Shown: piece after piece, positions 4,433-62,256 of the stretch | Position numbering within the stretch: the first letter of the stretch is position 1 | Layout: every line of letters begins with the position of its first letter | Virus record (IMG/VR): IMGVR_UViG_2541047680_000004 | Strand: one strand, 5' to 3' | Length of the DNA stretch: 64,000 bases | From: a virus | Taxonomy: Duplodnaviria; Heunggongvirae; Uroviricota; Caudoviricetes | Translations under genes and position numbers: made by a program | The notes under the pieces: model-generated | The model's database searches: none | What the model was told of the DNA's origin: nothing | Seen by the model: the letters and a program-made list of their open reading frames with translations, nothing else

Positions 4433-4591
4433 CCTTAATCTCCTTCACGGTGTTGGTTATTTCTACAATGCGATAAATGCGACCTCGTCTTTCTATAACA
4501 CCGTTTTTAATGTAGTCATTAATGCAACTGGACATCACCACAATACCGATGAAAAAACCAACTGCTAAAAATGCAATCATCCAGCCGAGCA

Positions 4592-5914
4592 TCATTCTTT
4601 ATCTCCGATTCGATCTTCTGTATCGCGTAAGCAACGCGGCCATTTCAGTCGTGGGTGGCGTAAGCTGCCATCCGGCGTTTTCTCGTGACAATGAACCTCG
4701 ACAATACGACCACGGTACTTCTCTTTGTTGTTCCAGATCTCGTCCAGATATTTATGCTTAATGCCGCTCGCACGAACAATCACACCGTTTTCAAGGCGAA
4801 TAACAATTTTTCCAAGCGTGTTGGCAAAACCAGAGTCCGGGTCGCCCGGCTCAAAGTCGATAATTTCACCATCTTCTGAATCTTCGTCTTTTAACTTCCA
4901 CCAGCTGCGGGTACGTTTAAACTCGTAAACAGAGTTCGGATCTTTGCCCATCTCCCCTTCTTCGTTATCGTCCAGGCGTTTCATGAAGCGTTCGATGAAA
5001 TCTTCGTGGCTATGGATGATATAGAACGGATGCAGGTGAATGTCTTGTGCGTAGCCTTCACTGCGATCGTTTTTAAACAACGCCACCAGCATAGCCAGGC
5101 GCTCTTTCAGCTTCATACCTGTCTTTGCATACTCTTTGGATTTAGCCTGTGCCCGCCATTCCGGTAGGAAGAAGTCGAAAACATGATAAATAGCGCCAAT
5201 TGCCTGCACGTTCTTTTTGCGCAATGCAGATACGGACTGGTTAAATGAACCGGCTGTTCCTTCACCATCGAAGAAGATGTGTTTGTGGCCTGAAAGTTTG
5301 CCTAATTCGAGCATTGCTGGCTTTAGGTGATCGAGAGACGTGATTGGATTACCAGTACGAGAAAGGAAGTTAACCTCTTCCTCGTCAACAATAACCTCGC
5401 AAATTACTCGCAAACCATCGAGCTTAAGACTGCCAATCATCGGCCATTTTGCTTTAGGATTTGGCTTGAAGGGGTATTTGTCGCCTTTTTCTTTATACGG
5501 TGACGCCAGCTGCACCTCGAATTTCGGAATGGGATTTTCAAAAACCTTGTTGCATAGGCTAATCCCAACACCTGCTTTCGGGTCTTTTAAGAGGAAACGA
5601 CGGAACACGTCCTGCCCATCGGCGCACATTGACGCCACGATAGACTCAACAGCTGCTATTGCTGCGTTCCCCGTTAGCTCGCGAGAGGCCAGCTTATTCA
5701 GTATATCAATGGCTTTTTCGTCACTTGGGACGGACTCACTAAGCGGCTCTGCCACTTTGTATTTCTTTACCCCAAAACGGATGAAAGGGTTGAGCATCAA
5801 TGAAACCATGCTTTGTTCAAAGTCATCCATGTTGGCCAATGCCTCTTTTTTTGCATTGGTTCCCATAGCTTTCATTTCGTCCAGCTTATGCTTAAGTGCG
5901 ATCAACTTTTTCAT
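4592..5914 (-). CDS. ATP-dependent DNA ligase
   Basis: Adenylation motif I KxDG(x)R present as SLKLDGLRV; 440 aa, size and layout typical of phage ATP-dependent ligases. Confidence 0.8.
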   Translation of the reverse strand: MKKLIALKHKLDEMKAMGTNAKKEALANMDDFEQSMVSLMLNPFIRFGVKKYKVAEPLSESVPSDEKAIDILNKLASRELTGNAAIAAVESIVASMCADGQDVFRRFLLKDPKAGVGISLCNKVFENPIPKFEVQLASPYKEKGDKYPFKPNPKAKWPMIGSLKLDGLRVICEVIVDEEEVNFLSRTGNPITSLDHLKPAMLELGKLSGHKHIFFDGEGTAGSFNQSVSALRKKNVQAIGAIYHVFDFFLPEWRAQAKSKEYAKTGMKLKERLAMLVALFKNDRSEGYAQDIHLHPFYIIHSHEDFIERFMKRLDDNEEGEMGKDPNSVYEFKRTRSWWKLKDEDSEDGEIIDFEPGDPDSGFANTLGKIVIRLENGVIVRASGIKHKYLDEIWNNKEKYRGRIVEVHCHEKTPDGSLRHPRLKWPRCLRDTEDRIGDKE

Positions 5915-6448: not shown

Positions 6449-7225
6449 TTACCAACTTCCCCAGCTAATCATCTTGCGCTGATCGCTTTCTAAGCGATAA
6501 GGGGCAAGAAGCTCTGTGACATGATTGGTGGCGTATGATTTAGCCTCTTGCTTAATCATCGGTAATTCGTTAGCAATCCTGACCATCTTCCCAGCAAATT
6601 CCGCCATTACGCCATCACAAGCCTTCCCCGCATCAACAACGATATGCACAAGATCCAACTGGCTTTTGCACATATCCCAAAGAGACGCGTATTCACTCTC
6701 TCTGATTACATTTACGGCACTATTAGCCCCTTTATTAATCAAAACTTCCAACAGATTTTTCGGGGTAACGAAATCTGCTTTCAGAGATAATGTCTTTTCA
6801 CCACTTATCGAACGCAAGTACTCTTCGTAGTTATTCTTCATCAAACCGCTGCTGCGCATTGCTAGAACTGCTTCTTGAATGGCCGCTTCAATAGTTTCGT
6901 CGTTTGAAAGACAAAAAACGGTATTTGTGTAGATCACTCTGCCATCAAGCCATGCTCCAACCTGCACTTTAAGACTGAGCGGGTTTTCTTTGCTAATAAA
7001 AACAACTAATGCAGAACGCCGTGCACAAGAAGGTTCGCCCCATACGTGTAACTCAACTTTCAGATAAGGCAACCCTGGTAGCGGGATCTCGTCCATACGA
7101 GCAGCGATATGATTCATTGCTGTATTGACGACCTTTCCAATGATGTCTAGTCGACTGCCCTCGCTGATTTCTAAACCTGTTTTATCAATGATGTCACAGG
7201 CCAATTTCTGAATTTCGTCTTTCAT
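6449..7225 (-). CDS. hypothetical protein
   Basis: 258-aa ORF with upstream conserved intergenic motif. Confidence 0.45.
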   Translation of the reverse strand: MKDEIQKLACDIIDKTGLEISEGSRLDIIGKVVNTAMNHIAARMDEIPLPGLPYLKVELHVWGEPSCARRSALVVFISKENPLSLKVQVGAWLDGRVIYTNTVFCLSNDETIEAAIQEAVLAMRSSGLMKNNYEEYLRSISGEKTLSLKADFVTPKNLLEVLINKGANSAVNVIRESEYASLWDMCKSQLDLVHIVVDAGKACDGVMAEFAGKMVRIANELPMIKQEAKSYATNHVTELLAPYRLESDQRKMISWGSW

Positions 7226-7350
7226 ACCAACTCCTAGCTAACAGATGAAAGTATTCTTACAAAAAACTAAGTATGTATCTACTTATCATTTTAGGCGCAA
7301 TAGTTCCCTATACGAAGATGCCGGGCTTATAGTCTGCCCGGCATTCACCA

Positions 7351-7764
7351 TTAATGAGCTACAGCCTCACTGTTGCACATCTTTCTGTAGACCTGCTTAT
7401 AACGCTGTAAGTCATGAGGATCATTAGGTGCCAACGACTTCGATAGGATTTTGTATACCACCCCTTTCGAAAACATGCCCTTTGGCTTCATTTCGAGTTC
7501 AACAACATATGAGTGATAGCCCACGTATGCACCAAAGCCATTTTTGGCGTTCAATTCTCCGCACACAAAGCCTGTCACACTCCCATCGTCATGATCAGTC
7601 CTGACAAACTTATCTTTCCTAAACATCACCGACGTGGGATCTTTCATATCATCCGCAATTGCTTGTTGGCCCAGAGCAATAGCCTTCTCGTCTGTAGGCT
7701 TACACCCCACTAAAGCAAACAAAGACAATAAAGCTCCTGTTAAAATCAGCTTATTTTTGCTCAT
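7351..7764 (-). CDS. putative lipoprotein
   Basis: Signal peptide with lipobox LSLFALVG-C near N-terminus; 137 aa. Confidence 0.55.
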   Translation of the reverse strand: MSKNKLILTGALLSLFALVGCKPTDEKAIALGQQAIADDMKDPTSVMFRKDKFVRTDHDDGSVTGFVCGELNAKNGFGAYVGYHSYVVELEMKPKGMFSKGVVYKILSKSLAPNDPHDLQRYKQVYRKMCNSEAVAH

Positions 7765-14992: not shown

Positions 14993-15005
14993 AAACAACT
15001 TGTTT
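14993..15005. promoter_or_regulatory. palindromic operator-like site AAACA-N3-TGTTT upstream of parA
   Basis: aaacaacttgttt 36 bp upstream of parA start. Confidence 0.5.
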
Positions 15006-19177: not shown

Positions 19178-22100
19178 TTATTCTTTAGGTGAATTTAACT
19201 TCGTTTCAAGCTCCTCAACCCTTTTGGTCAATTGCTGAATATGATGAATGAGTGGTACAACCAAACGCTCATACATCACTCCTTCAGCGACCATACCATT
19301 TGAGGAAATATCTCCTGGAGAATCATTATTTGTTGGTTCACGCCAATGGACATATTGCGGGGCAATCTCACCAACCTCTTCAGCAATAAGGCCGTAATAC
19401 CCCCAATCCTTTCGGTCACCTCGACAAATTGAACGATACCAAACAGGTCTTAATGACAAAAGTTCATCAGCATATCGATCTTGTAATGTTTCAATATCCT
19501 TTTTATAGCGCCTTGAAGATGTTGAACGCCAAACTGTATTGATACCTGGGTTTGGATCAATGTACATATTGGCACCGCTAGTAGTTGTGCCAATATCCCA
19601 TATAGCAAACCCTCCACTACCGCCTGATTTGACAACCAGTGTTTCAGCAATAATATCCAGGTTGCCACTATAGCCTGTCAGTGATGATCTGCTTGCATAG
19701 GAACTTAGAAGGTTTGTTACCTCTGTTTTCGTATAAGCATTAAGGTTAGCCGCAGTCAAAGTAATATCGGCAGAGCCATCAAACGCCACACCAGCAATTT
19801 TCCTTGCTGTCTGCAATTTTGTGGCTGTTGCGGCATTACCAGTAGTATTCTGATTACCGGTTGTATTCACACCAGGGATTGAATCCTTAGCGGTATATAC
19901 CTGCGCCCACGCTGACCATGCCGCATCAGTGGTATCTCTTCTGGAGCGAATGAAAACCGGCGCATGTGCACCGCTCGTACCACTCCAGCCAATAAGCAAC
20001 TCGCCCTCACCAGCAGCACTCGCACCTTTCATGTGCAATACGTTGCCATACGTGGTCGGGTAGCTATTGTTGTACGCCTCGTACATTTGAATGCCAGCAG
20101 TACCTTGAGTAGAACCGCTTAAAGCCGTAACTCGACCACGAGAAACCAATGTATTAATATTGATATCACCTGAACCATCAAACTTAACACCATTGATGTT
20201 TCTCGCTGTTTGCAACTTCGTAGCTGTTGAAGCATTGCCATTCAAGCTACCATTTACGCCACCAGTAACATTTAGTCCATTACCAATAGACACAACACCG
20301 CTGCTATTATTAATTATAATCGGTCGCAAACTGTTCCATGAACCTAACGTATCTCCTGATGCTGTTAGCATGAAATATGTGCTGCCGCCGTCATTACGGA
20401 TAAAGAACCCGTAGTTACCGTAAGCAATGCGGAAACCATTTGCATATTTTGAAACGATCTCACCAGAAGACGTCAACCCTCCAGATAATGTGCCACCTGA
20501 AAGCGGTAATGCTCCTACATCAGAAGCTGTTGGTTTGTTTCTAGTGTTATAAGAACGACGCCAGCCTGGCGCATAATCACTCCCATTGTACACATAAATA
20601 AATTCCGCATTATTAACACCACCATGACCTGATGTTGTTGCCGTTGTAACACGAATAGTGTAGTGGCTTGTTGCCTTATTACTAAACACCTCAATCACGG
20701 AACCAGATAGATCGATCCTACCGCAACCAGTGTCGTCTATATAATTATTGTTGGCGTAAGTCCATGAGCACCGTGCGATCCAATGTTTGTTTGTAAATGC
20801 CCCCTGATTGTTTAGCCAAGTTATAAATTGAGCAGTCGTAAATGCCGTTCCGTTACCACTATTTAACCATCCAGCGGCAGCGGTTGGTGCGTTTATATCA
20901 GCCGGCTGAGGCATAAATCCAGTCGTGTAAACCTGCTCCCAACCACTTTCAAAACCATAGCCATCTCTTGAGGAACGGTAGAACAGACCACCATTTTTAT
21001 AGTGAGCTTTAATTTGAAGCGTACGGCAACTACCTACACCGGTATAAAAGTTGGCAAGAATATAACTGGCGCCTGTTCTAGTTACATTGTAAGCACCAGA
21101 TTCAGCATTCCACGGCACGCCACCATCAGCATCCGCATATGACCCTGTTGCCCTTCTTGCGAAAGCGGCAACATGCGCAGCGGTTAAAGTGATATCAGTA
21201 GAACCATCAAATGGAACACCGGATATTTTTCTTGCAGTCTGAAGTTTTGTAGCAGTTGCAGCATTACCAGTGGTGTTCTGATTACCCGTAGTGTTTACAC
21301 CTGGAAGGTTGATATTTGCAGAACCGTCGAAACCAACTCCACCGATAGATCTTGCCGTCTGCAATTTCGTTGCTGTACTTGCATTACCATTTAATGTTCC
21401 GGTGATCCCACCAGTAACAGACAACGGACCTGAAACTGTTCCTCCGGTTGTTGGCAGTGCTCCAATATCTAACGGCGTCGGTTTCTGATGTGTGCTATAC
21501 ATCGTATAAACAACACCATCGGTAACGCTGGAAGGCTTACTCGCTGAATATGTTGGCGATGTATAAACAGAAACTGACGCATTTGCAGTACAATCCCAAT
21601 GGATATTTACACTCGTCGCATAATTGCCAATTTCAACGTAAATATCATATGTATCGCCGGATGTGTTGATCCAGGCGAAATTCGTTAATCCGACAGCTGT
21701 ACGCTTCCACAAAGCACCTGTAATCCCTTTGGGGTTTCCATTGCCTGCTCGTAGAACCAGTTCTGAAATGCCTGCCTGATGTGGGGAGCCGACGTTGTAA
21801 CCAGCGCCACCAATCAATGCGATGTAAACGATGGAACTCGCTTGTGGCATTGTAACAGTAGCCAGTTTGAACCACCCGGCCCCGCCAGAGAAAGACATCG
21901 TTATTGAATTTAAAGTACCAATATCTTTCGGCGTTAATGTGATATCCGCAGTCAGTGCTTTCCCGTTAATTTTTCGGTTAGATGGCACCCTGCTGTTCGC
22001 ATTGTCATTGACTACTTTAACTGCTTTTGGCGTTGCGGCCAGCGATTCACTGGTGCTGTCGACAGCACTGCTAAGTTTCACAACACCTTTAGTTGTAAGG

Positions 22101-23476
22101 CTTGCGTCTTCCATCGCAACTGCACCGGCAATCTCTTCAGCACGATCAGCAGCAGCTTCCGCACGGGTCGCAGCGGATTCAGCAGCAGTTTTGCTCTGAG
22201 ATGCTGCCGTCGCACTGCCTGCCGCCTCTGTTGCTTTCGTGGATGCCGTCGTGGCGCTGCCCTTCGCTGCTGACGCCTGTCTGGTCGCCTCATCTTTTGA
22301 AGCAGACGCAGATGATGCCGATGACGCTGCCGAACTGGCGGACGATGCGGCTGCCGTTTTTGAGGATTCTGCACGGGTTTCCGACGCTTTCGCGTTCGTT
22401 TCGGATGTCTTCGCTGCGGAAGCAGACCTCGCTGCTGCGCTGGCCTGTTCAGTGGCTTCGCCAGCCTTCGTTGTGGCTGTTGAAGCAGATGATGCGGCAC
22501 TTTCTGCCGATTTTCCGGCGGCGGTGGCACTGGCTGAGGCCTGCCCGGCACTTGTTGACGCGGCACTGGCAGACGACGCAGCCGCTGTTTTTGAGCCTGC
22601 CGCAGCCGAGGCGCTCTGTCCCGCTGCCGTTTCAGAAGACCTGGCGTTCGTCTCGGACGTTTTTGCCGCCTTCGCGGAATTTCCTGCCGCCGTTGCCGAG
22701 GAAGCGGCATTACTGGCGCTCGAGGCTGCGCTCGTTTCTGATGATTTCGCTGCCTCTTTTGAGGCCGCCGCATCCCGGGCTGAGGTGGCAGCTTCTGACG
22801 CCTTCGTGGTCGCGGTGGATGCAGAAGTGGCTGCAGATTTTTGTGACGCTGCAGCATTCGTTTCAGACGTTTTCGCGGCACCGGCACTGGTGGCCGCCGC
22901 GCTTTTTGAGGACTCTGCAGCGGATGCACTTTGAGACGCTTGAGAGGCTTTTTCTCCAGCGGTATTGGCGCTTTCTGCTGCTGCGGCAGCACTGGCCGCC
23001 GCCTCACGAGCTTTGTCGCCAGCAGCATCAATCGCGTCAGTGTTATTTTTATACCACTCAACGTTTTCGTTGTGCTCGTTGACGATCTGCATTAGCGGCT
23101 TAACGGTCACTTCTGTACCGTCTTCACGCTCGATTGTCACCTCATCCAGAGCAGTCAACCAACTGCGCATGGACTTGGAATCAGCCGACATACGCGACAT
23201 TAGTGCTGTAAAGCGCGCGCTAAACTGTGTTAAGTCGCCTTCATAGGTCGTAATGATTCGGCACGGAACTTCAGACTGAGTTTCGCCGGTATAGGGTTCT
23301 GAGAGAACAATGTTCGTATCACTGGTTACGCGCTTGATCTCATACAGCTTATTGTCGGGGCCAATGACGATCATCCCCGGCAACACACCATTAGCTGTTA
23401 CGTTCCAGGCTGTCCCTGCCCCAACCAGAGTATTGCTGCCCTGTGTAAATGTGATAGTACCTTCCCTGTACCACAT
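19178..23476 (-). CDS. long (side / L-shaped) tail fiber with C-terminal S74 intramolecular chaperone domain
   Basis: 1432 aa; Ala/Ser-rich stalk; four GNAATATKLQTAR-type fibre repeats; C-terminal auto-processing chaperone-like segment. Confidence 0.8.
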   Translation of the reverse strand: MWYREGTITFTQGSNTLVGAGTAWNVTANGVLPGMIVIGPDNKLYEIKRVTSDTNIVLSEPYTGETQSEVPCRIITTYEGDLTQFSARFTALMSRMSADSKSMRSWLTALDEVTIEREDGTEVTVKPLMQIVNEHNENVEWYKNNTDAIDAAGDKAREAAASAAAAAESANTAGEKASQASQSASAAESSKSAAATSAGAAKTSETNAAASQKSAATSASTATTKASEAATSARDAAASKEAAKSSETSAASSASNAASSATAAGNSAKAAKTSETNARSSETAAGQSASAAAGSKTAAASSASAASTSAGQASASATAAGKSAESAASSASTATTKAGEATEQASAAARSASAAKTSETNAKASETRAESSKTAAASSASSAASSASSASASKDEATRQASAAKGSATTASTKATEAAGSATAASQSKTAAESAATRAEAAADRAEEIAGAVAMEDASLTTKGVVKLSSAVDSTSESLAATPKAVKVVNDNANSRVPSNRKINGKALTADITLTPKDIGTLNSITMSFSGGAGWFKLATVTMPQASSIVYIALIGGAGYNVGSPHQAGISELVLRAGNGNPKGITGALWKRTAVGLTNFAWINTSGDTYDIYVEIGNYATSVNIHWDCTANASVSVYTSPTYSASKPSSVTDGVVYTMYSTHQKPTPLDIGALPTTGGTVSGPLSVTGGITGTLNGNASTATKLQTARSIGGVGFDGSANINLPGVNTTGNQNTTGNAATATKLQTARKISGVPFDGSTDITLTAAHVAAFARRATGSYADADGGVPWNAESGAYNVTRTGASYILANFYTGVGSCRTLQIKAHYKNGGLFYRSSRDGYGFESGWEQVYTTGFMPQPADINAPTAAAGWLNSGNGTAFTTAQFITWLNNQGAFTNKHWIARCSWTYANNNYIDDTGCGRIDLSGSVIEVFSNKATSHYTIRVTTATTSGHGGVNNAEFIYVYNGSDYAPGWRRSYNTRNKPTASDVGALPLSGGTLSGGLTSSGEIVSKYANGFRIAYGNYGFFIRNDGGSTYFMLTASGDTLGSWNSLRPIIINNSSGVVSIGNGLNVTGGVNGSLNGNASTATKLQTARNINGVKFDGSGDININTLVSRGRVTALSGSTQGTAGIQMYEAYNNSYPTTYGNVLHMKGASAAGEGELLIGWSGTSGAHAPVFIRSRRDTTDAAWSAWAQVYTAKDSIPGVNTTGNQNTTGNAATATKLQTARKIAGVAFDGSADITLTAANLNAYTKTEVTNLLSSYASRSSLTGYSGNLDIIAETLVVKSGGSGGFAIWDIGTTTSGANMYIDPNPGINTVWRSTSSRRYKKDIETLQDRYADELLSLRPVWYRSICRGDRKDWGYYGLIAEEVGEIAPQYVHWREPTNNDSPGDISSNGMVAEGVMYERLVVPLIHHIQQLTKRVEELETKLNSPKE

Positions 23477-51180: not shown

Positions 51181-51603
51181 ATGAAATACTCGCTTCTCCC
51201 TCTACTAACGTTACCAGTGTTGATGCTTACCGCGTGCCAATCACGCCCAATATCAATCCATGACGCCAAACCAGCACCGCAGGCCAAAGTGTTCAAGTAT
51301 CAAAGCGCAGCGCCAGCTACGTTGGTGGTAATGAGAGACACAGGTTTTGTAGGAGCTGGATGTGATGCTTCCATTTTCATCAACGGCGAAACTGTCGCAA
51401 AACTGGCTACAGGCGAAAAAGCGACTTTCCATTTAAATGCCGGAGAATTAATTGTGGGTGCATCTCTTGAAGGTGCAGGTTTATGTGCTCTAAACCCCGC
51501 TCGTCAAGAGCGAGAAACGACTCTGAAGAATGGAGACACAAAAGCGTTCAGGGTGTTCACCAGCAATTCTGGTGACATCGACATTCTGCCAACAACTCTG
51601 TGA
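51181..51603 (+). CDS. lipoprotein
   Basis: Signal peptide MKYSLLPLLTLPVLMLTA-C lipobox. Confidence 0.55.
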   Translation: MKYSLLPLLTLPVLMLTACQSRPISIHDAKPAPQAKVFKYQSAAPATLVVMRDTGFVGAGCDASIFINGETVAKLATGEKATFHLNAGELIVGASLEGAGLCALNPARQERETTLKNGDTKAFRVFTSNSGDIDILPTTL

Positions 51604-51607
51604 TGAC

Positions 51608-52132
51608 ATGACAACCAAAGATATTACCTACGGTATCCAAGCTGAACTCTGGCCGCGAGATTACACTAACGTTGAAAAACTACTGATGTTCTGGCGCAGA
51701 GAACAAATTCCTGTAAGGGTCACTCTCGAAGATGGCCAGGCGTTTTGCATGTACGTTTATGGCCTCATGCCATCTCGTAACAAAGTTGACCTTTGCCCAG
51801 CCCCTTTTGACAAAGAAAATCGTATAAGGCTCCCACTTGAACGCATTAGTACAATTGAATCAGGTGTGGTTGACAGTATCGCTCACGATTTCAAAGGTCG
51901 ACTAACAGTTCACCCTGATTATGTCGATAATCGGCCATCACGCCGCGATTTTTTTGCAATTTGCAACCAAGCCTACAAAGCAAACAAATCTATAAGGGTG
52001 TACATGGCGGATGGCCGTGAAATTGAGGGGGTGTCAGCAGGCGCAGATGCTTGTCAGGTTACACTACGTGTCGAGAACGGTAGAAAAATAGTTGTTTTGT
52101 TCGATTGGGTTGAACGAATTTTGCCTTTTTGA
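51608..52132 (+). CDS. hypothetical protein
   Basis: 175-aa ORF (internal Met with reasonable spacing after lipoprotein stop). Confidence 0.45.
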   Translation: MTTKDITYGIQAELWPRDYTNVEKLLMFWRREQIPVRVTLEDGQAFCMYVYGLMPSRNKVDLCPAPFDKENRIRLPLERISTIESGVVDSIAHDFKGRLTVHPDYVDNRPSRRDFFAICNQAYKANKSIRVYMADGREIEGVSAGADACQVTLRVENGRKIVVLFDWVERILPF

Positions 52133-52726: not shown

Positions 52727-53377
52727 ATGGCTAACATTATCATTTCTAAAAAGTCCATCATTGAAGCTGCATCTATTGTATCCGACGAGCTGCGCGAAAA
52801 AGCAGATCTGGCAACTCAAACATATAACGAACATTATAAAAATGGTACGCACACTAAAGCAGACAAAGCAAATATGCAAGCTGCGACCACTAAACTTGCT
52901 TACTTCATCAACAACGTCGTAAACGCAGTAGAAGACGAAAAATTATGCTCTGTTTTCTACTATGCGATTAAAGCAAGCAAACAAGCGCCAGAAGTATTTT
53001 TCCGTGATGCAATGACTAATAGTTATTCTCTGGAAAAACTGGTTTATCTGGTTAAATCAATTAAATCTGGTAAATGCGTTTATTCCGTCGCTGATATGTC
53101 TGGATCTCGTGTATTCGCTTTAATCGATATGATTAACGACGAGATCGACACGTTCACTAATGGCGCTGTTTTCGATTTAATGAATGAAGCTAAAAAAGCG
53201 TGTGAAATTAAATTGGACGCTGGCTATACTCAAGCCAACCAGTTGATCAATCTTTGCGAACGTCTTGGACTTGTTGAAAAAGTCAAAGGAGCTGGGAGTG
53301 CGAAAGCTGGTACTCAGCAATATCGCTTTATTAAAAATGATTTCTACAATTATTTAGCTGATGCTTTCAAAGCGTAA
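52727..53377 (+). CDS. hypothetical protein (AT-rich cassette gene 1)
   Basis: 216-aa ORF with AT-rich codon usage, strong RBS-like aaggaaaaa upstream. Confidence 0.5.
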   Translation: MANIIISKKSIIEAASIVSDELREKADLATQTYNEHYKNGTHTKADKANMQAATTKLAYFINNVVNAVEDEKLCSVFYYAIKASKQAPEVFFRDAMTNSYSLEKLVYLVKSIKSGKCVYSVADMSGSRVFALIDMINDEIDTFTNGAVFDLMNEAKKACEIKLDAGYTQANQLINLCERLGLVEKVKGAGSAKAGTQQYRFIKNDFYNYLADAFKA

Positions 53378-53956: not shown

Positions 53957-54370
53957 TTGTCTTTAACTCACTCCAACAACATAAAAATAAGCGCCAAAAT
54001 AACGCCATAGACGCGCTTTTATATCCTTACCAGTACATACCCATTACTTAACACATTAACGCGCTTAAAACGCGTTATATTGCGCTATAGAGTATGGTTA
54101 ATCATTGGCTTTTAGTCTTGCTTTATGATCCGCGTTTATTTGTCGGCGCGGATCGGCATTTTGTTTTGTTCCGTATCCGCTCGCGTATTATGTGCGCGTG
54201 ATTTTTCACATAATCACACCACTTAATCACGTATGTGATTATGCTACGAAAGAAATCTGGATGTCTCAGGCGACGAAAGTCATCATAATTTTCCCCGCTC
54301 ACCTGTCCGACAACCGCTGGTTGGATTCCACCAGCTTCCCGATGTTTTTTCTACACAAAGGCGAATGCAG

Positions 54371-54450
54371 CCGTTTCCCGAAAAAATCCTGGCCGTTCCC
54401 CGTCGGCTCATGAATACGTTCCTCGCCGTTTCTGAAAATTTCCCTGCGGC
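54371..54450. repeat. iteron cluster A (3-4 direct repeats, consensus CCGTTTCCCGAAA)
   Basis: ccgtttcccgaaaa / ccgttccccgtcgg / ccgtttctgaaaat / ttccctgcgg spaced about 22-33 bp. Confidence 0.6.
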
Positions 54451-54495
54451 AGCTGGTGGCTATAGAGAAAGGGCCGTTTCTGGCCCTCTTCTCAG

Positions 54496-56808: not shown

Positions 56809-57138
56809 TTACTCGAATACTTCAAGAAACTCCTGAACGTCCCAATGCTGGACGAGGTGAAGATAGACCTTAGAAATCACGTCATTTTCGCTATCGCATG
56901 TGAAGTAGTACTTCTGGCTGCGGTTGTATGTGTCCACACAAAATTCGCTCATATCCATAAAGTCAGCATCTTCACCCATGTCGCAAATCATCAAAGCAGG
57001 TGCATCATCACGAGTCATCAGCTCCAGCACCCATCTTGAATTAATCAGAGTGGAAGACCAACCTTCCAGCTCATAGAACTGGTCAAACTCTTTTTGAGTT
57101 AATTTCTTGATTTGGTTGATGTCGATATTTGCAAACAT
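56809..57138 (-). CDS. small acidic protein (small-gene cassette 5)
   Basis: 109 aa with about 22 Asp/Glu; ATG at 57,138 is 13 bp downstream of palindrome 57,151-57,163. Confidence 0.45.
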   Translation of the reverse strand: MFANIDINQIKKLTQKEFDQFYELEGWSSTLINSRWVLELMTRDDAPALMICDMGEDADFMDMSEFCVDTYNRSQKYYFTCDSENDVISKVYLHLVQHWDVQEFLEVFE

Positions 57139-57150
57139 AAAGCAATCCTT

Positions 57151-57163
57151 AAACAACATGTTT
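57151..57163. promoter_or_regulatory. palindromic operator-like site AAACA-N3-TGTTT
   Basis: aaacaacatgttt. Confidence 0.5.
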
Positions 57164-57499
57164 TCTTGATGGTGTTATTATCGCAATAACGCACAGGCGA
57201 AAAAGGATTTTATTCCGGTGAATATGGTTTTGGCAGTGAGTTTTCAGGTTCAGTACCGAGTATACTTTTTACATTATTCTGATTTAGTGGCCGAAGGTGG
57301 CTGGTGGGCAGAATAATCCTCTCCCCGAAAACCTACTGAAATCGATTGTGACCCGTTGGCTGTCTGGCACAATTACGCTGTAGCTGGGCATTCAGAGGGA
57401 ATCCAGCGGTAAGCAAGTCCGCCTACGTGAGCGCCTCTCTTCTTCCCGCACATTACAGGTGGGTAGCCGCAACTCTCCCTCTCGCTATACCGGTACGCC

Positions 57500-57635
57500 G
57501 CCGTTCCTGAACCGGCATCGAGCCTTTTCCCGAAATCCACACAGGCAACTCGACCGTTTCCCTGAAAACCTCCAGCCGTTCCCCGAAGGCAACCCAGCCT
57601 TTTCTGTAGCGGGATGCAACCTTTTCCCTGTATGG
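57500..57635. repeat. iteron cluster B (6 direct repeats, about 22-bp period, consensus CCGTTTCCCGAAA)
   Basis: gccgttcctgaacc, gccttttcccgaaa, accgtttccctgaaaa, gccgttccccgaagg, gccttttctgtagc, accttttccctgta at about 57,501, 57,524, 57,555, 57,576, 57,598, 57,621. Confidence 0.65.
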
Positions 57636-57749
57636 ACCGAAGGCTGACCGTAGGGGTTTTACGGGGGATAAAATCAGGAGTTGAATAAATACGAAAAAGG
57701 AGGCGACACCCCTCCTTCCCTCCCCACTTATACATACCTGGCTTCTTCG

Positions 57750-58600
57750 CTATACATGTTGTGTTTTCTTCGTGTTTTATCTGTCTCAACCTCTCTATAG
57801 GCGTTAATGCTCACTCCTTCCAGAACCTTCTATACGGCGACTATTTCTGTTGGTGAATTGGGTGTGTTGTTCTCTCTGTCGGTGTATGTGGTTTCGTTCG
57901 TTTTGCGGTGGTTCTTCTATGGGGTGTTCTCGTCGTTTTGGTGATTGTTCTTCTCCGTGTATGGAGTAATGGCAGGTGGGCGATTCCTTTCGTTATTGTG
58001 TTTGAGTTGTTTGTCTGGAGTGTGTGAAAGGCTTTTGTAGTTATTCGTGTATTGGGTAATGGCGTTTCCCGTGATTGTTATGTTTCGTGTCTTTTGGGAT
58101 TGAGAGAAACCTTGCGGTTACAGGCTTCGTTGGGGTTTCAGTGATTCTGGTGTTTCTTCGCTGTTTGGGTAATGGCGTGTCGTGGGTATCGCGCGTATGA
58201 ATGTTTTCGGATTGCCTGTGAAAGTTAGGTTGGTTGTCCGGTAGCCTGGGGAGAAGAGGTGGGTCTTTTCGGTAGCCTGCCATAAAGAGGTTGGTTGTTT
58301 TGGGTAATGGTATATGTGTTATTTAGTTGTTTTGTTATGCCTGAAAATAAGTTGTTTATATGGTTGTGTAACGCAACGGGAGCGATTTTGAGCGTGTGTT
58401 TTTGTTGGTAGTGTGTTGAGTCGTCTGTGGTGAAAATTGGACGCTGTGGCGCTATCTGCTGCGTAGAATTACGGGTATAAGAAGTGATGTGTGATAACGT
58501 CAATTTTTTAGACCAAATCGGGAGAAAGCGTTGATGTTTCGTTGATCTGTTATTTAGTTGTTTTCTTATTGGTATAAACAACCATAACCTATTGATATTT
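57750..58600. repeat. GT-skewed non-coding tract with short dispersed repeats
   Basis: Plus strand almost devoid of C-runs, rich in G/T; repeated tgggtaatgg (x4), gttatttagttgtttt (x2), ggtagcctg...agaggttgg (also at 55,060-55,130). Confidence 0.55.
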
Positions 58601-58700
58601 AATGATGTGATTGCTGGTATGGGAGGGGAGTAGTGGCGATCAACGGGTTCTTATAGAAAAGAATCAAATTGTGACCGCCATTATCAATAAGTTGCAACCG

Positions 58701-59306
58701 TTAGTTGTTCAGATAAACATTTGGAACACGGACGTAGAACTTACTGTTACCGGTAAGTTCCAGAGTAATGTTAATGTCATTACCATTGTCTAGTGTAGCC
58801 GTCGCTCTATAGAACTTATCAGTTACCTTTTCGTCAATATTAACCTTGATGCATTTCGCCGCAGTAGAACCATTATGCTCTTTCAGAATAGTTGTCACGA
58901 CAGGACATGCGGCTTCCTCAATGACGCCATCTTCCTGTTTCGGTATTACAATGAAGAATACGTAAGCCAGCAAGGTAACGACTATAATAAATGGCAGTCT
59001 ACTGCTCTTTGTTATAGTCGCACGCTTCCATAGGTAGATTGGCATGAAAACTATTCCCCATAAAATAGCAGGTGGCTCATAGCCGGATTCCGAAATCGCC
59101 ATTCTGTCAGCCACTAATAATCCGATGGCAGCTAAACTTCCAATTAATACAGCATAATTTGCATACTCTTCGTTCGGAATGCCGAAGCAAATTGGAATAA
59201 AAGCTAAAATCCACGCATAAGTGTTATTCAAAGGTTTTTTTTGTTGGTTATTGGTTTCCATCACATCCATCTCATCACTTAAATTACTTGTATATATTAT
59301 CAACAT
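58701..59306 (-). CDS. hypothetical integral membrane protein
   Basis: About 4 predicted TM helices then soluble C-terminal domain; 201 aa. Confidence 0.45.
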   Translation of the reverse strand: MLIIYTSNLSDEMDVMETNNQQKKPLNNTYAWILAFIPICFGIPNEEYANYAVLIGSLAAIGLLVADRMAISESGYEPPAILWGIVFMPIYLWKRATITKSSRLPFIIVVTLLAYVFFIVIPKQEDGVIEEAACPVVTTILKEHNGSTAAKCIKVNIDEKVTDKFYRATATLDNGNDINITLELTGNSKFYVRVPNVYLNN

Positions 59307-59382: not shown

Positions 59383-59568
59383 TTAGATGAGATGGTCTAA
59401 TTCATCATCTATCATGGCTTTGACGCTGGAGTCATTCACTCCATATTTATTTATGAGCTGTTTCAGCTCTGGCGAAAACTGAAGGTAGATATCGTGAGCG
59501 TTTTTCACTGTAGGTTCAACGCCACGCATTTCAAGCGCCTTTAGTAGATATGAGTCTTCTTTAAGCAT
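59383..59568 (-). CDS. hypothetical small protein
   Basis: 61-aa ORF. Confidence 0.3.
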   Translation of the reverse strand: MLKEDSYLLKALEMRGVEPTVKNAHDIYLQFSPELKQLINKYGVNDSSVKAMIDDELDHLI

Positions 59569-60065: not shown

Positions 60066-62099
60066 TTACTTAACCTGGTGGCCAGGTTTAGCACCAGCAT
60101 CCGGGCTTAACAGGAAGATATCTTTCCCGCCGGGGCCAGCAGCCATCACCATGCCTTCAGAGATACCGAAGCGCATTTTACGCGGAGCCAGGTTAGCCAC
60201 CATAATTGTGTGACGACCAATCAGTGCCTGTGGGTCTGGATAAGCAGAACGGATGCCTGAGAAGACATTACGCTTTTCACCACCGAGATCCAGCGTCAGG
60301 CGCAGCAGCTTGTCAGAACCTTCAACAAACTCTGCGTTTTCAATCAGCGCCACGCGCAGGTCAACTTTAGCGAAGTCGTCAAAGGTGATGGTTTCCTGAA
60401 TCGGGTCGTCTGCCAGTGGGCCAGTTACCGGTGCGGCTGTGGCTTTCACTTCTTCTTTGGATGCTTCCACCAGTGCTTCCACCTGTTTCATATCGATACG
60501 GTTATACAATGCCTTGAACGGATTCACTTTATGGCCCAGCAGCGGTTGCTGGATACCATCCCAGGTCAGTTCTGTATTCAGGAATGCTTCTGCACGTTCA
60601 GTCAGTTTCGGCAGTACCGGTTTCAAGTAAGTCATCAGCACGCGGAACAGGTTAATGCCCATAGAGCAAATCGCCTGCAGATCGGCATCGCGTCCTTCCT
60701 GCTTCGCCACCACCCACGGAGCCTGTTCATCAACATAGCGGTTAGCCAGGTCAGCCAGTGCCATGATTTCACGGATAGCTTTACCAAATTCGCGGCTTTC
60801 CCATGCTTCGCCAATCACTTCAGCGGCATCAGTAAAGGTTTTGTACAGTTGCGGGTCAGCCAGTTCGCTTGCCAGCACGCCGTCAAAACGCTTGTTGATA
60901 AAGCCTGCATTACGGGAGGCCAGGTTAACCACTTTGTTCACGATATCGGCATTCACGCGCTGAACGAAATCCTCCAGGTTGAGATCGATATCATCAATGC
61001 GCGAAGAGAGTTTCGCAGTGTAGTAGTAACGCAGGCTGTCGGCGTCAAAATGATTCAGCCAGGTGCTGGCTTTAATAAAGGTACCGCGAGACTTAGACAT
61101 CTTCGCGCCGTTCACCGTCACATAGCCATGAACAAACAGGTTGGTCGGCTTGCGGAAGTTGCTGCCTTCCAGCATTGCTGGCCAGAACAGACTGTGGAAG
61201 TAAACAATATCTTTACCGATGAAGTGGTACAGCTCGGCGGTGGAGTCTTTCTTCCAGTATTCATCGAAGCTTACGCTGTCGCCGCGCTTGTCGCACAGAT
61301 TCTTGAAAGAACCCATATAGCCAATCGGCGCATCTAGCCAGACGTAGAAATATTTACCCGGCGCGTTCGGAATTTCAAAACCGAAATACGGCGCGTCGCG
61401 GGAGATATCCCACTGTTGCAGGCCAGATTCAAACCACTCCTGCATTTTATTTGCCACCTGCTCCTGCAACGCACCGCTGCGGGTCCATGCCTGCAACATT
61501 TCGCTGAAAGAGGGCAGATCAAAGAAGAAGTGTTCAGAATCACGCATTACCGGCGTAGCGCCAGAAACCACCGATTTCGGCTCGATCAATTCAGTCGGGC
61601 TGTAGGTCGCGCCGCAGACTTCGCAGTTATCGCCGTATTGATCCGGGGATTTACATTTCGGGCAGGTGCCTTTCACAAAACGATCCGGCAGGAACATGCC
61701 TTTTTCCGGGTCGTACAACTGAGAGATAGTGCGATTTTTAATAAAACCGTTCTCTTTCAGGCGAGTATAGATAAGCTCAGACAACTGACGGTTCTCTTCG
61801 CTGTGCGTCGAGTGATAGTTGTCATAGCTGATGTTAAAGCCTGCGAAATCAGTCTGGTGTTCCTGACTCATTTCGCCAATCATCTGCTCCGGTGTGATAC
61901 CAAGTTGCTGTGCTTTCAGCATGATCGGCGTACCGTGGGCATCGTCGGCACAGATGAAATTAACCTCGTGGCCGCGCATTCGCTGGTAACGAACCCAGAC
62001 ATCAGCCTGGATGTGCTCCAGCATATGGCCGAGGTGGATTGAGCCGTTAGCGTACGGCAGCGCGCACGTCACCAGAATTTTCTTCGCGACTTGGGTCAT
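60066..62099 (-). CDS. metG: methionyl-tRNA synthetase
   Basis: 677-aa product beginning [26 protein letters not shown] (HIGH motif) with KMSKS motif, matching enterobacterial MetG as recalled from memory; track ORF 60066..62228 has a spurious N-terminal extension. Confidence 0.95.
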
Positions 62100-62256
62100 A
62101 GTAGGCATTACTTCTTTGTAGTGAAAAGGGGCTTGATAGTAACAAAATGGCCTTATGTCTGCCATGTGATAACAGCATTTCTCATAAATGATTAAATGTC
62201 GCAGCTGGAGTACACTACAAGGCGACAATTGCGCAAATTAAAATAAAGGAGACGGG

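Follow-up and report, generated by a model that had tools for sequence, protein, structure and literature searches.

Rho preferentially loads onto untranslated, C-rich and unstructured RNA, and a stretch of approximately 80 nt is sufficient as a Rho utilization (rut) region. Rho-dependent terminators and leaders, including lambda tR1, P4 t_imm, rho, mgtA, and rpoS, may provide the closest working likeness to the locus that is described here, possibly in combination with transcription-activated, RNA-primed origins such as ColE1 RNA II, the activated ori of lambda, T4 oriF/oriG, and mitochondrial LSP-CSB. Further likeness is encountered in the split iteron systems of P4 (ori/crr), R6K (gamma, with the distal alpha and beta), and P1 (oriR/incA), and for none of these three has a GT-skewed tract been described, to our knowledge. 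The locus in question is a non-coding tract that is G+T-rich on its plus strand, located at 57830-58690 in a 64,000-nt stretch of DNA from a virus (IMG/VR virus record IMGVR_UViG_2541047680_000004; hereafter the window, by which the whole stretch is meant) that is part of a phage-plasmid of the SSU5/pHCM2 type. The tract is a real, family-wide cis-acting region, which is probably regulatory and probably linked to adjacent iterons that differ from those of the replication protein RepA. No description of this region or of its non-RepA iterons was found in the searchable literature on the origin, iterons, intergenic regions, and transcription maps of SSU5 or pHCM2. We tentatively propose, at a probability of roughly 0.35, that the tract serves as a Rho-sensitive leader or insulator that gates transcription into this orphan iteron site.

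The likeness to Rho-dependent terminators and leaders resides in a tract that is untranslated, C-rich, G-poor, and unstructured in the transcribed direction, that is located upstream of a presumably regulated target, and in which RNA vanishes without an intrinsic terminator. Unlike these terminators, the tract is about ten times longer than the usual rut, contains conserved discrete repeats, and has iterons rather than a coding gene as its presumed target. With RNA-primed origins the locus shares a promoter-like element that is situated several hundred nucleotides ahead of the presumed origin, an RNA segment rich in purines and G that immediately precedes this origin, and a strong difference in strand composition, whereas the long part of the tract RNA is C/A-rich rather than G-rich, lacks a conserved structure, and leads to a start of DNA synthesis that is itself presumed. 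As in the split iteron systems, a phage-plasmid carries two clusters of the same 22-bp-spaced repeat at a distance of a few kb, but its typed RepA (IncFIB) has other iterons 33 kb away, and the protein that would bind the two clusters is hypothetical.

The window belongs to an SSU5/pHCM2-type phage-plasmid, and aligns with the plasmid pLF82 of Escherichia coli LF82 from approximately 20 kb to 81 kb of the latter. Between 57200 and 58700 the window shares 97% identity with Escherichia phage Cyrano, which equals the LF82 plasmid (NC_011917), and 94-97% identity with the phages CMS-2020a and PhiR41_1, and matches Salmonella phage SSU5 in part. A more sensitive search recovered the region from 838 plasmid records, for the most part at 60-80% identity, which are spread over Klebsiella, Escherichia, Enterobacter, Salmonella (including pHCM2), Citrobacter, and Cronobacter, as well as from 12 phage records, and the comparison with relatives that had been suggested in an earlier note on this DNA, made from its letters alone, thereby establishes that the tract is conserved family-wide. 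The same note had placed the tract at the right end of the element and had compared it with the injection-stop region of T5. The placement is incorrect: on the right-hand side of the tract, metG, apbC, and the genes that follow are annotated within the same phage-plasmid in Cyrano/pLF82 and PhiR41_1, and the tract is therefore internal; in circular plasmids and phage records alike it is flanked by phage genes on both sides, according to the records, and the terminase genes are located approximately 14 kb away, which leaves a T5-like terminal function unsupported.

In the National Center for Biotechnology Information (NCBI) annotation of pLF82 and six other relatives a gene-free gap of 1.4-1.6 kb is found at this position, and the tract occupies most of the 1.5-kb gap. 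Nearly all genes of the element, including those on both flanks of the gap, are encoded on the minus strand. To the right of 58695 the gene content varies among relatives, encompassing a membrane protein in the window, a coiled-coil protein in Cyrano, and elsewhere IS1, a GIY-YIG nuclease, or a SMEK-domain protein; the tract is situated exactly where the conserved core gives way to the variable accessory genes.

The dominance of G and T on the plus strand, which was first noticed from the letters alone, is borne out by computation of the skew. For 57830-58690 as a whole the G+T content of this strand is put at 73%. The interval 57830-58470 contains 14.5% A, 12.5% C, 32.6% G, and 40.4% T on this strand, and the best 800-bp segment reaches a G+T fraction of 0.709 against a window mean of 0.500 (standard deviation 0.029), i.e., approximately 7 standard deviations above it. 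Calculated per 100 bp between approximately 57850 and 58500, the GC skew ranges from +0.36 to +0.61 and the AT skew from -0.24 to -0.82. In 1-kb bins of the complete, 108-kb pLF82 the GC skew lies between -0.19 and +0.10 everywhere except in the bin of the tract, where it amounts to +0.37, which makes the tract a unique outlier in pLF82/Cyrano. Its extent required correction: the skew is real but spans approximately 57830-58690, while the first 80 nt (57750-57830) of the interval that had originally been delimited (57750-58600) are C+T-rich.

The composition is maintained across the family. Among 39 non-redundant variants, which differ by more than 3% from each other, the G+T fraction of the tract is 0.62-0.70. 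Two distant elements, L084 and L086, which were found via a neighbouring protein (53% and 62% identity, respectively), have a gene-free gap at the same place in which most of the sequence has changed; nevertheless, the G+T fraction per 100 bp is up to 0.80 in L084 and 0.58-0.70 in L086, and both gaps contain copies of GTAATGG. Within the tract alignment the conserved columns contain 76% G+T and the variable columns still 63%, which indicates, as far as aligned sequences can, that the composition itself is maintained and not the motifs alone.

It is quite unlikely that the skew arose neutrally, through mutation bias or as the relic of a decayed gene, with function confined to short conserved blocks at the right end. 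Such a view could draw on the silence of the tract in the lysogen, on the tolerance of an IS3 insertion, and on the persistence of truncated copies as debris in large Klebsiella plasmids, but no second region of this kind occurs in 108 kb, the skew and GTAATGG persist at approximately 67-73% nucleotide identity and beyond, and leftward transcription would be expected to produce a mutational skew of opposite sign.

IS3-family elements repeatedly interrupt or truncate the tract, as is seen in the relatives L016 (4808-5970) and L004 and L005 (approximately 4500-5470), and the natural plasmid pECAZ155_2 carries an intact IS3 inside it. Large IncF plasmids of Klebsiella contain IS3-bounded fragments of the Klebsiella version of the tract, one of which directly precedes genes for DUF262 and type I restriction-modification proteins. 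The possibility that the tract is an independent module in these large plasmids was rejected, as the copies represent pieces of the version found in Klebsiella phage-plasmids that were truncated by IS3.

Read in the leftward direction, which is that of the surrounding genes, the gap contains the following features.

58585-58694: two putative IHF sites, each matching the consensus WATCAANNNNTTR and inverted relative to one another (58682-58694, plus strand; 58597-58585, minus strand).

58635-58680, minus strand: inverted repeat GGCGATCA...TGACCGCC that delimits the conserved block on its right.

57830-58690, defined by composition and not by strand: the non-coding tract itself, G+T-rich on the plus and C+A-rich on the minus strand, the core of the finding.

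58475-58509, minus strand: promoter-like bipartite element, consisting of an A-tract (58509-58504), TTGACG (58503-58498), a variable spacer of 17 nt, and TTATAC (58480-58475).

57690-57835, minus strand: purine-rich segment (66% purine) that includes the run AGTGGGGAGGGAAGGAGGGGT (57728-57708).

57495-57640, plus strand: six iterons with core CCKTTYCCC, spaced by 22, 31, 22, 22, and 22 bp, and a solitary copy at 57318-57334.

57155-57200, minus strand: promoter/operator-like motif (GATAAT, 9 nt, AAGAAAACATGTTGTTT) that precedes the gene at 56809-57159 and marks the start of the next leftward unit.

The RNA that would be transcribed from the minus strand of the tract has the properties of a rut region, being untranslated over at least approximately 80 nt, richer in C than in G, and poor in structure. 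Its C/G ratio is 2-10 in every 78-nt interval from 58682 to 57851, as compared to a window-wide median of 0.88 and a 95th percentile of 1.75. The predicted folding energy is -150 kcal/mol per 980 nt (z score -1.6), with long unpaired stretches, against -258 kcal/mol for the other strand.

Transcription of the locus could be assessed in published RNA sequencing (RNA-seq) data of LF82 (PMC9928086, S1 table), in which values are expressed as log2(FPKM+5), FPKM being fragments per kilobase per million mapped reads, and in which strand-specific counting is unstated. The cargo gene to the right of the gap, CYRAN_102, is expressed at 57 FPKM in lysogeny broth (LB) and at up to approximately 590 FPKM in other conditions, whereas CYRAN_103, which covers window positions 58225-58581, has a value of 2.32, corresponding to 0 FPKM, in both LB replicates and at most approximately 14 FPKM elsewhere (PMC9928086). 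For CYRAN_104, which overlaps the iterons, approximately 9 FPKM is listed, and the levels of CYRAN_105, the adjacent gene on the left, change without relation to those of the tract (PMC9928086). RNA-seq coverage, which had been named earlier as a check on the locus, thus shows an expressed upstream gene next to a tract that has no reads in LB and does not exceed approximately 14 FPKM elsewhere. In the Cyrano lysogen the RNA is gone within approximately 110 nt of the stop of the cargo gene, where the C-rich unstructured zone begins, and an intrinsic terminator, i.e., a hairpin with T-run, was not found between CYRAN_102 and CYRAN_103 in Cyrano. Transcription enters and ends there without an intrinsic terminator, as is seen in rut regions, with the strandedness of the counts unstated.

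Since C-rich, unstructured and untranslated RNA is the preferred substrate of Rho, transcription arriving from the cargo genes or starting at the promoter of the tract itself would be stopped before it reaches the iterons. Rho as the terminating factor, firing of the promoter, and a role of the iterons as an origin are each predictions.

The promoter-like element is present in each of the 65 family sequences from which a match was obtained, and these represent 36 distinct variants that include L084 and L086. Across these variants the hexamers are kept and the length of the spacer is always 17 nt, while the sequence of the spacer varies; the element is unique within the window. In comparison with the sigma-70 consensus (-35 TTGACA, -10 TATAAT, 16-18 bp apart), five of the six -35 positions agree and an upstream A-tract is present, whereas the -10 hexamer, either TTATAC or, with a spacer of 18 nt, the alternative TATACC, lacks the T at -7. 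Fixed spacing combined with a variable spacer is the usual footprint of a promoter, which suggests promoter activity with a predicted leftward transcription start near 58468, into the tract. In the LF82 lysogen this element is silent according to the RNA-seq data. The inverted repeat at the right boundary never varies among relatives and forms a perfect stem only as minus-strand RNA, owing to a G-U pair. At the other end, the purine richness of 57690-57835 is conserved in all clades, including L084, while a 10-bp hairpin with T-run at 57720-57694 is confined in its strong form to the E. coli clade, being weak in the pHCM2 clade.

In the proposed Rho-sensitive arrangement, the tract would be the DNA image of a conserved zone of untranslated leftward transcription in a control region of 1.5 kb. 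Along the minus strand, the hotspot of cargo genes would be followed by the boundary hairpin, the IHF-like and operator-like sites, and the promoter-like element, and subsequently by approximately 640 nt of C/A-rich, G-poor, and essentially unstructured RNA that would lead into approximately 130 nt of purine-rich RNA with a G-run (and, in this lineage, a hairpin and U-run), after which the six non-RepA 22-bp iterons and an operon of small genes with its own putative promoter would be reached. In the quiescent plasmid, Rho would stop transcription from the cargo genes or from the weak promoter of the tract ahead of the iterons, thereby shielding the iterons and the core from transcription that originates in the accessory hotspot. 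Upon induction, an activator acting at the promoter, relief of Rho activity, or both, would allow transcription to reach the purine-rich segment and the iterons, and such read-through could activate a second origin (probably a lytic one) or control site, or prime it. The GTAATGGC units and 31-bp repeats within the tract would be putative binding sites for element-encoded proteins that set the switch.

The points in favour of this proposal are the minus-strand orientation of the genes, the properties of the RNA, the drop of RNA in the lysogen, the 17-nt promoter footprint, the compositional constraint, the orphan iterons, and a family-specific winged-helix protein that is encoded beside the second iteron cluster. 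Several observations weigh against it. In the lysogen the RNA already stops approximately 110 nt past the cargo gene, which makes the remaining 700 nt superfluous for insulation, and a rut requires approximately 80 nt rather than 800 and has no need of conserved discrete repeats. The -10 hexamer is poor, being devoid of the usual T at -7, and the terminal hairpin with T-run is strong in the E. coli clade only. The region contains no DnaA box, is depleted of GATC, and has a single short AT-rich patch, which leaves the role of the iterons as an origin unproven. The strand specificity of the RNA-seq counts is unstated, and both Rho dependence and promoter activity are predicted. Finally, pECAZ155_2 carries IS3 within its tract, and the tract is therefore dispensable for plasmid maintenance. 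A bolder version of the same proposal, which we regard as improbable, holds that the 1.5-kb gap would be a switch for the lytic cycle, in which a Rho landing pad of kilobase scale, encoded by composition, silences an orphan iteron origin in the plasmid state until, on induction, a regulated leftward transcript with a conserved polypurine end activates or primes it; if true, this would be a design of origin control that is not known to have been described for any plasmid or phage.

The iteron site itself was examined together with its counterpart elsewhere in the window, which adds the following features.

57300-57307, plus strand: Chi octamer GCTGGTGG, conserved among those E. coli and Klebsiella relatives in which the segment is present.

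54365-54459, plus strand: second cluster of CCKTTYCCC iterons (repeats at 54365-54445), followed by Chi at 54452.

The iterons adjacent to the tract, to which attention had been drawn before, are present as six units at approximately 22-bp spacing (57495-57640). This array has the repeats of an iteron origin, i.e., at least three direct repeats of 17-22 bp in helical phase, whereas the GT tract itself has none. The second cluster, which is the only other CCKTTYCCC site, is located 3.1 kb to the left, beyond a five-gene minus-strand operon, and the two combinations of iterons and Chi (54365-54459 and 57300-57640) bracket this operon. The IncFIB repA gene (31-1086 in pLF82) is 33 kb away and is surrounded by dissimilar repeats of the ATCCACTATAGAGAGC type; judged by their sequence, the CCKTTYCCC iterons are orphan and not those of RepA, and this difference makes a second origin or control site at the iterons plausible. 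A search for a cognate initiator gave no match to a Rep family among the neighbouring genes, and the RepA repeats are dissimilar. No DnaA box (TTATCCACA, allowing 1 mismatch) was found in 57100-58750, and no long AT-rich unwinding element was detected, the GC content being 44-51% by the iterons and the sole AT-rich 40-mer being located 670 bp away. GATC occurs at 1.2 per kb as compared to 3.9 per kb.

Just left of the second cluster a family-specific protein of 216 amino acids is encoded (52727-53377, plus strand), of which the structural model (predicted local distance difference test, pLDDT, 82) displays a helical domain and a C-terminal winged helix. Its fold matches are weak (expectation value, E, 0.02-0.2) and include winged-helix regions of Orc1/Cdc6, RTP, TubR, and MarR/PadR proteins; on the basis of this model the protein is a candidate binder of the iterons or of the repeats. 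Ten flanking proteins matched only PHROGs of unknown function, and gave no significant Pfam match except DUF5983.

These data bear on an explanation that we hold to be doubtful, although less so than the other alternatives, in which the tract would act as DNA in a second, lytic origin. The iterons would then bind an initiator of the element, and the asymmetric kilobase would be a zone of strand exposure, helicase or primase loading, RNA priming, or R-loop formation, its skew resulting either from selection for an unstructured C/A strand or from deamination of a plus strand that is often single-stranded. The orphan iterons adjoin the tract, the second cluster at 3.1 kb is reminiscent of what is known of P4 ori/crr or R6K, the element encodes its own DnaE, DnaB-like helicase, and ligase, G+T enrichment is known to mark strands that are single-stranded for part of the time, a polypurine/polypyrimidine run between the tract and the iterons is conserved, and predicted IHF-consensus sites are present. 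Conversely, the region has no DnaA box, is depleted of GATC, and has a GC content of 44-49% rather than being AT-rich; its G content of 33% is below the threshold that R-loop predictors usually apply, and the conserved promoter-like element points the wrong way to produce a G-rich RNA. Furthermore, a Rep gene was not identified, the 216-amino-acid neighbour has only weak winged-helix matches (E of 0.02 or higher), and a maintained plasmid tolerates an IS3 insertion in the tract.

The repeats within the tract are as follows.

57966-57972, 58056-58062, 58169-58175, and 58304-58310 (span 57966-58310), plus strand: copies of GTAATGG(C), evaluated by their count against shuffles and by alignment.

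58239-58300, plus strand: two tandem 31-bp units of the form CGGTAGCCTG-N5-AAGAGGTGGGT-N5, which are among the best-conserved blocks of the tract.

58545-58569, minus strand: first copy of a 25-mer (ATAAGAAAACAACTAAATAACAGAT), a member of a dispersed motif.

58314-58338, minus strand: second copy of the 25-mer, located within the 40-mer that has the highest AT content in the gap (58311-58350, 22.5% GC).

Repeated tgggtaatgg had been singled out by the earlier note together with a second unit; GTAATGG is indeed over-represented, and TGTTATTTAGTTGTTTT is duplicated. The window tract contains four copies of GTAATGG where approximately 0.16 are expected (maximum of 2 in 300 shuffles), three of which are exact copies of TGGGTAATGG (longer unit TTCTTCTCCGTGTATGGAGTAATGGC); individual relatives contain 4-6 copies against 0.08-0.16 expected, and the 39 variants contain 2-6. 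The two copies of the 17-mer TGTTATTTAGTTGTTTT lie within the 25-mers at 58314-58338 and 58545-58569. The 31-bp unit, which the earlier note had missed, occurs in 1-3 copies at a spacing of 29-31 bp among relatives and coincides with invariant alignment columns; CGGTAGNNTG is found in the window in these units only.

The motif to which the 25-mers belong is dispersed over the element, with 8 matches against 2.1 expected, a number that was reached by none of 100 shuffles. On the minus strand it consists of a GATAAT-like hexamer, approximately 9 nt, and the near-palindrome AAGAAAACAAnTTGTTT. Apart from the tract copy at 58555, it immediately precedes the starts of genes on the minus strand, at 14997, 55003, 56670, 57155, and 59922, and at 88813 in pLF82, with a ParA-like ATPase gene among the motif-bearing genes. 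This set looks like a regulon of operator-bearing promoters for a putative repressor.

Another explanation, which we consider unlikely, is that the tract is an array of binding sites, made up of the GTAATGGC units, the 31-bp repeats, and the 25-mers, for element-encoded proteins such as a regulator, a partition or handcuffing complex, or a scaffold, and that the skew follows from sites of the same orientation and their spacers. The strong over-representation of the repeats, the 1-3 copies of the 31-bp unit at approximately three helical turns, the higher G+T content of conserved as compared to variable columns, and the membership of the 25-mer in a motif family that is found at several promoters are consistent with such an array. 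However, the spacers and the variable columns are skewed as well (63% G+T), the composition is retained in distant relatives in which most of the sequence has been lost, and the binding protein is hypothetical.

The 31-bp units also raise the question of a rightward function. The tract could be a Rho-resistant leader on the plus strand that recruits RfaH at an ops-like site, a possibility to which we assign very little weight. The copy of CGGTAGCCTG at 58270 has the core C3-G8 as well as T11 and G12 of GGCGGTAGnnTG and is invariant in 7 relatives, the two copies in the tract are the only CGGTAGNNTG sites in the window, and a G-rich, C-poor RNA would resist Rho. The locus resembles RfaH ops/JUMPStart in containing the invariant core CGGTAG..TG in an untranslated region, but differs from it in lacking G1 and G2, in being on the wrong strand with respect to the promoter-like element and the genes, and in having no downstream operon on the same strand. 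In addition, the copy at 58239 has a T at position 4 in 4 of 7 relatives, while a G4C substitution abolished recruitment in the cited study; no plus-strand promoter was found, every phage-plasmid relative examined has its downstream genes on the minus strand, the conserved promoter-like element is oriented in the opposite direction, and there is no RNA in LB. An RfaH site was rejected on account of the wrong strand and wrong context of the core.

The observation that the tract contains no convincing open reading frame (ORF) stands. Long ORFs are present on both strands because stop codons require the rare bases (A on the plus and T on the minus strand), and their position and frame are not conserved among seven relatives. 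Substitutions between relatives show no 3-periodicity in the tract (p 0.2-0.99), in contrast to the real neighbouring gene at 56809-57159, where they are distributed over the codon positions as 5, 1, and 16 (p 1.5e-4). Protein coding was ruled out by the origin of the ORFs in base composition, their lack of conservation, and the lack of codon periodicity. In two phage records minus-strand hypothetical proteins are called over the tract and the iterons, at 7028-7384 and 6134-6538 in L001 (CYRAN_103 and CYRAN_104) and at 6944-7330 and 6150-6419 in L002; these are very probably spurious ORFs that arise from base composition.

A structured non-coding RNA, which had been offered as one possible identity of the tract, is not supported either. 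The covariance models of Rfam gave no match, the best E of 1.2 corresponding to scores far below the gathering scores, and the plus-strand RNA folds no better than shuffled sequences (z score +0.74). Consensus folding of 7 and of 38 relatives yielded approximately -15 to -23 kcal/mol with hardly any covariation (approximately -15 kcal/mol for 38 sequences and 425 columns). As Rfam, single-sequence folding, and alignment folding deliver only the one invariant boundary hairpin, structured RNA was rejected. It is thus highly improbable that the product of the tract is a non-coding RNA of the structured or sponge type, or a set of small hydrophobic plus-strand peptides; ORFs are open on both strands, and a hydrophobic one (alignment columns 872-982) is shared by several relatives, but an Rfam match, excess folding energy, supported covariation, and enrichment of ARN runs are all lacking, no antisense target of at least 14 nt goes beyond chance (one 14-nt match, E 0.34), codon periodicity is absent, and open frames are expected from the base composition.

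Several further candidates were discarded. An Hfq sponge based on ARN runs is contradicted by the lack of enrichment, as 214 of 500 shuffles equal the tract. For an antisense regulator, targets of at least 14 nt in the element comprise the one chance match and, apart from it, copies of the promoter motif only. Tandem Repeats Finder (TRF) detects no tandem array in the window or in pHCM2. A cluster of Chi or near-Chi sites directed against RecBCD is not apparent, since these sites are not enriched, only one 7-of-8 match is located inside the tract, and the single exact Chi, at 57300, is not part of it.

In clinical E. coli, Klebsiella, Enterobacter, and Salmonella, phage-plasmids of the SSU5/pHCM2 type are frequently encountered. 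Carriage of resistance genes is exemplified by blaCTX-M-15, which is reported on the SSU5-like plasmid pECOH89 (PMC3999498). The position of the tract at the border between core and accessory genes could explain how foreign, promoter-bearing genes are tolerated without disturbance of the core, and the tract and its iterons together provide a concrete candidate for a second origin or for a control switch from the plasmid to the lytic state. The two hypothetical proteins that are annotated over the tract in phage records are very probably not genes.

Other observations in the window concern genes at a distance from the tract. A full-length homologue of FljA is encoded at 51530-52132 (plus strand; PF03614, E 2.5e-84; weak Hfq-like signal) and is conserved in the distant relatives L084 and L086. 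FljA is an RNA-binding translational repressor of phase-1 flagellin, and the homologue of the phage-plasmid might shut off host flagellin. The tract as a decoy for this neighbouring FljA-like protein was rejected: the 9-mer ACCCAATAC is all that the tract motif has in common with the fliC leader of E. coli, where approximately 0.36 chance matches are expected, and this 9-mer is carried by only one or two of the motif copies in the tract. On the right-hand side, a 61-amino-acid ORF (59383-59568, minus strand) has a sub-threshold match to the family of the T7 gp5.9 RecBCD inhibitor (E 0.0057; 17 bits against a cut-off of 24.5). It is followed by metG, encoding a full-length methionyl-tRNA synthetase (60066-62228, minus strand), and by apbC/mrp (approximately 62.3-63.4 kb, plus strand), host housekeeping genes that appear as cargo inside the phage-plasmid in the window and likewise in Cyrano, PhiR41_1, and pECAZ155_2. 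A search of genome contigs with the left-neighbour protein returned a single uninformative locus. One relative that is labelled 'MAG: Bacillota bacterium' (L014, JAEWTL010000044.1) contains a 95%-identical copy of the gene at 56809-57159 together with the promoter-like element of the tract, and is probably a mis-binned contig of an enterobacterial phage-plasmid. Finally, a 1-kb stretch within the region of the tail genes (22001-23000) has an unusually high GC content (0.57-0.62) and a strongly negative AT skew of -0.30 to -0.38.

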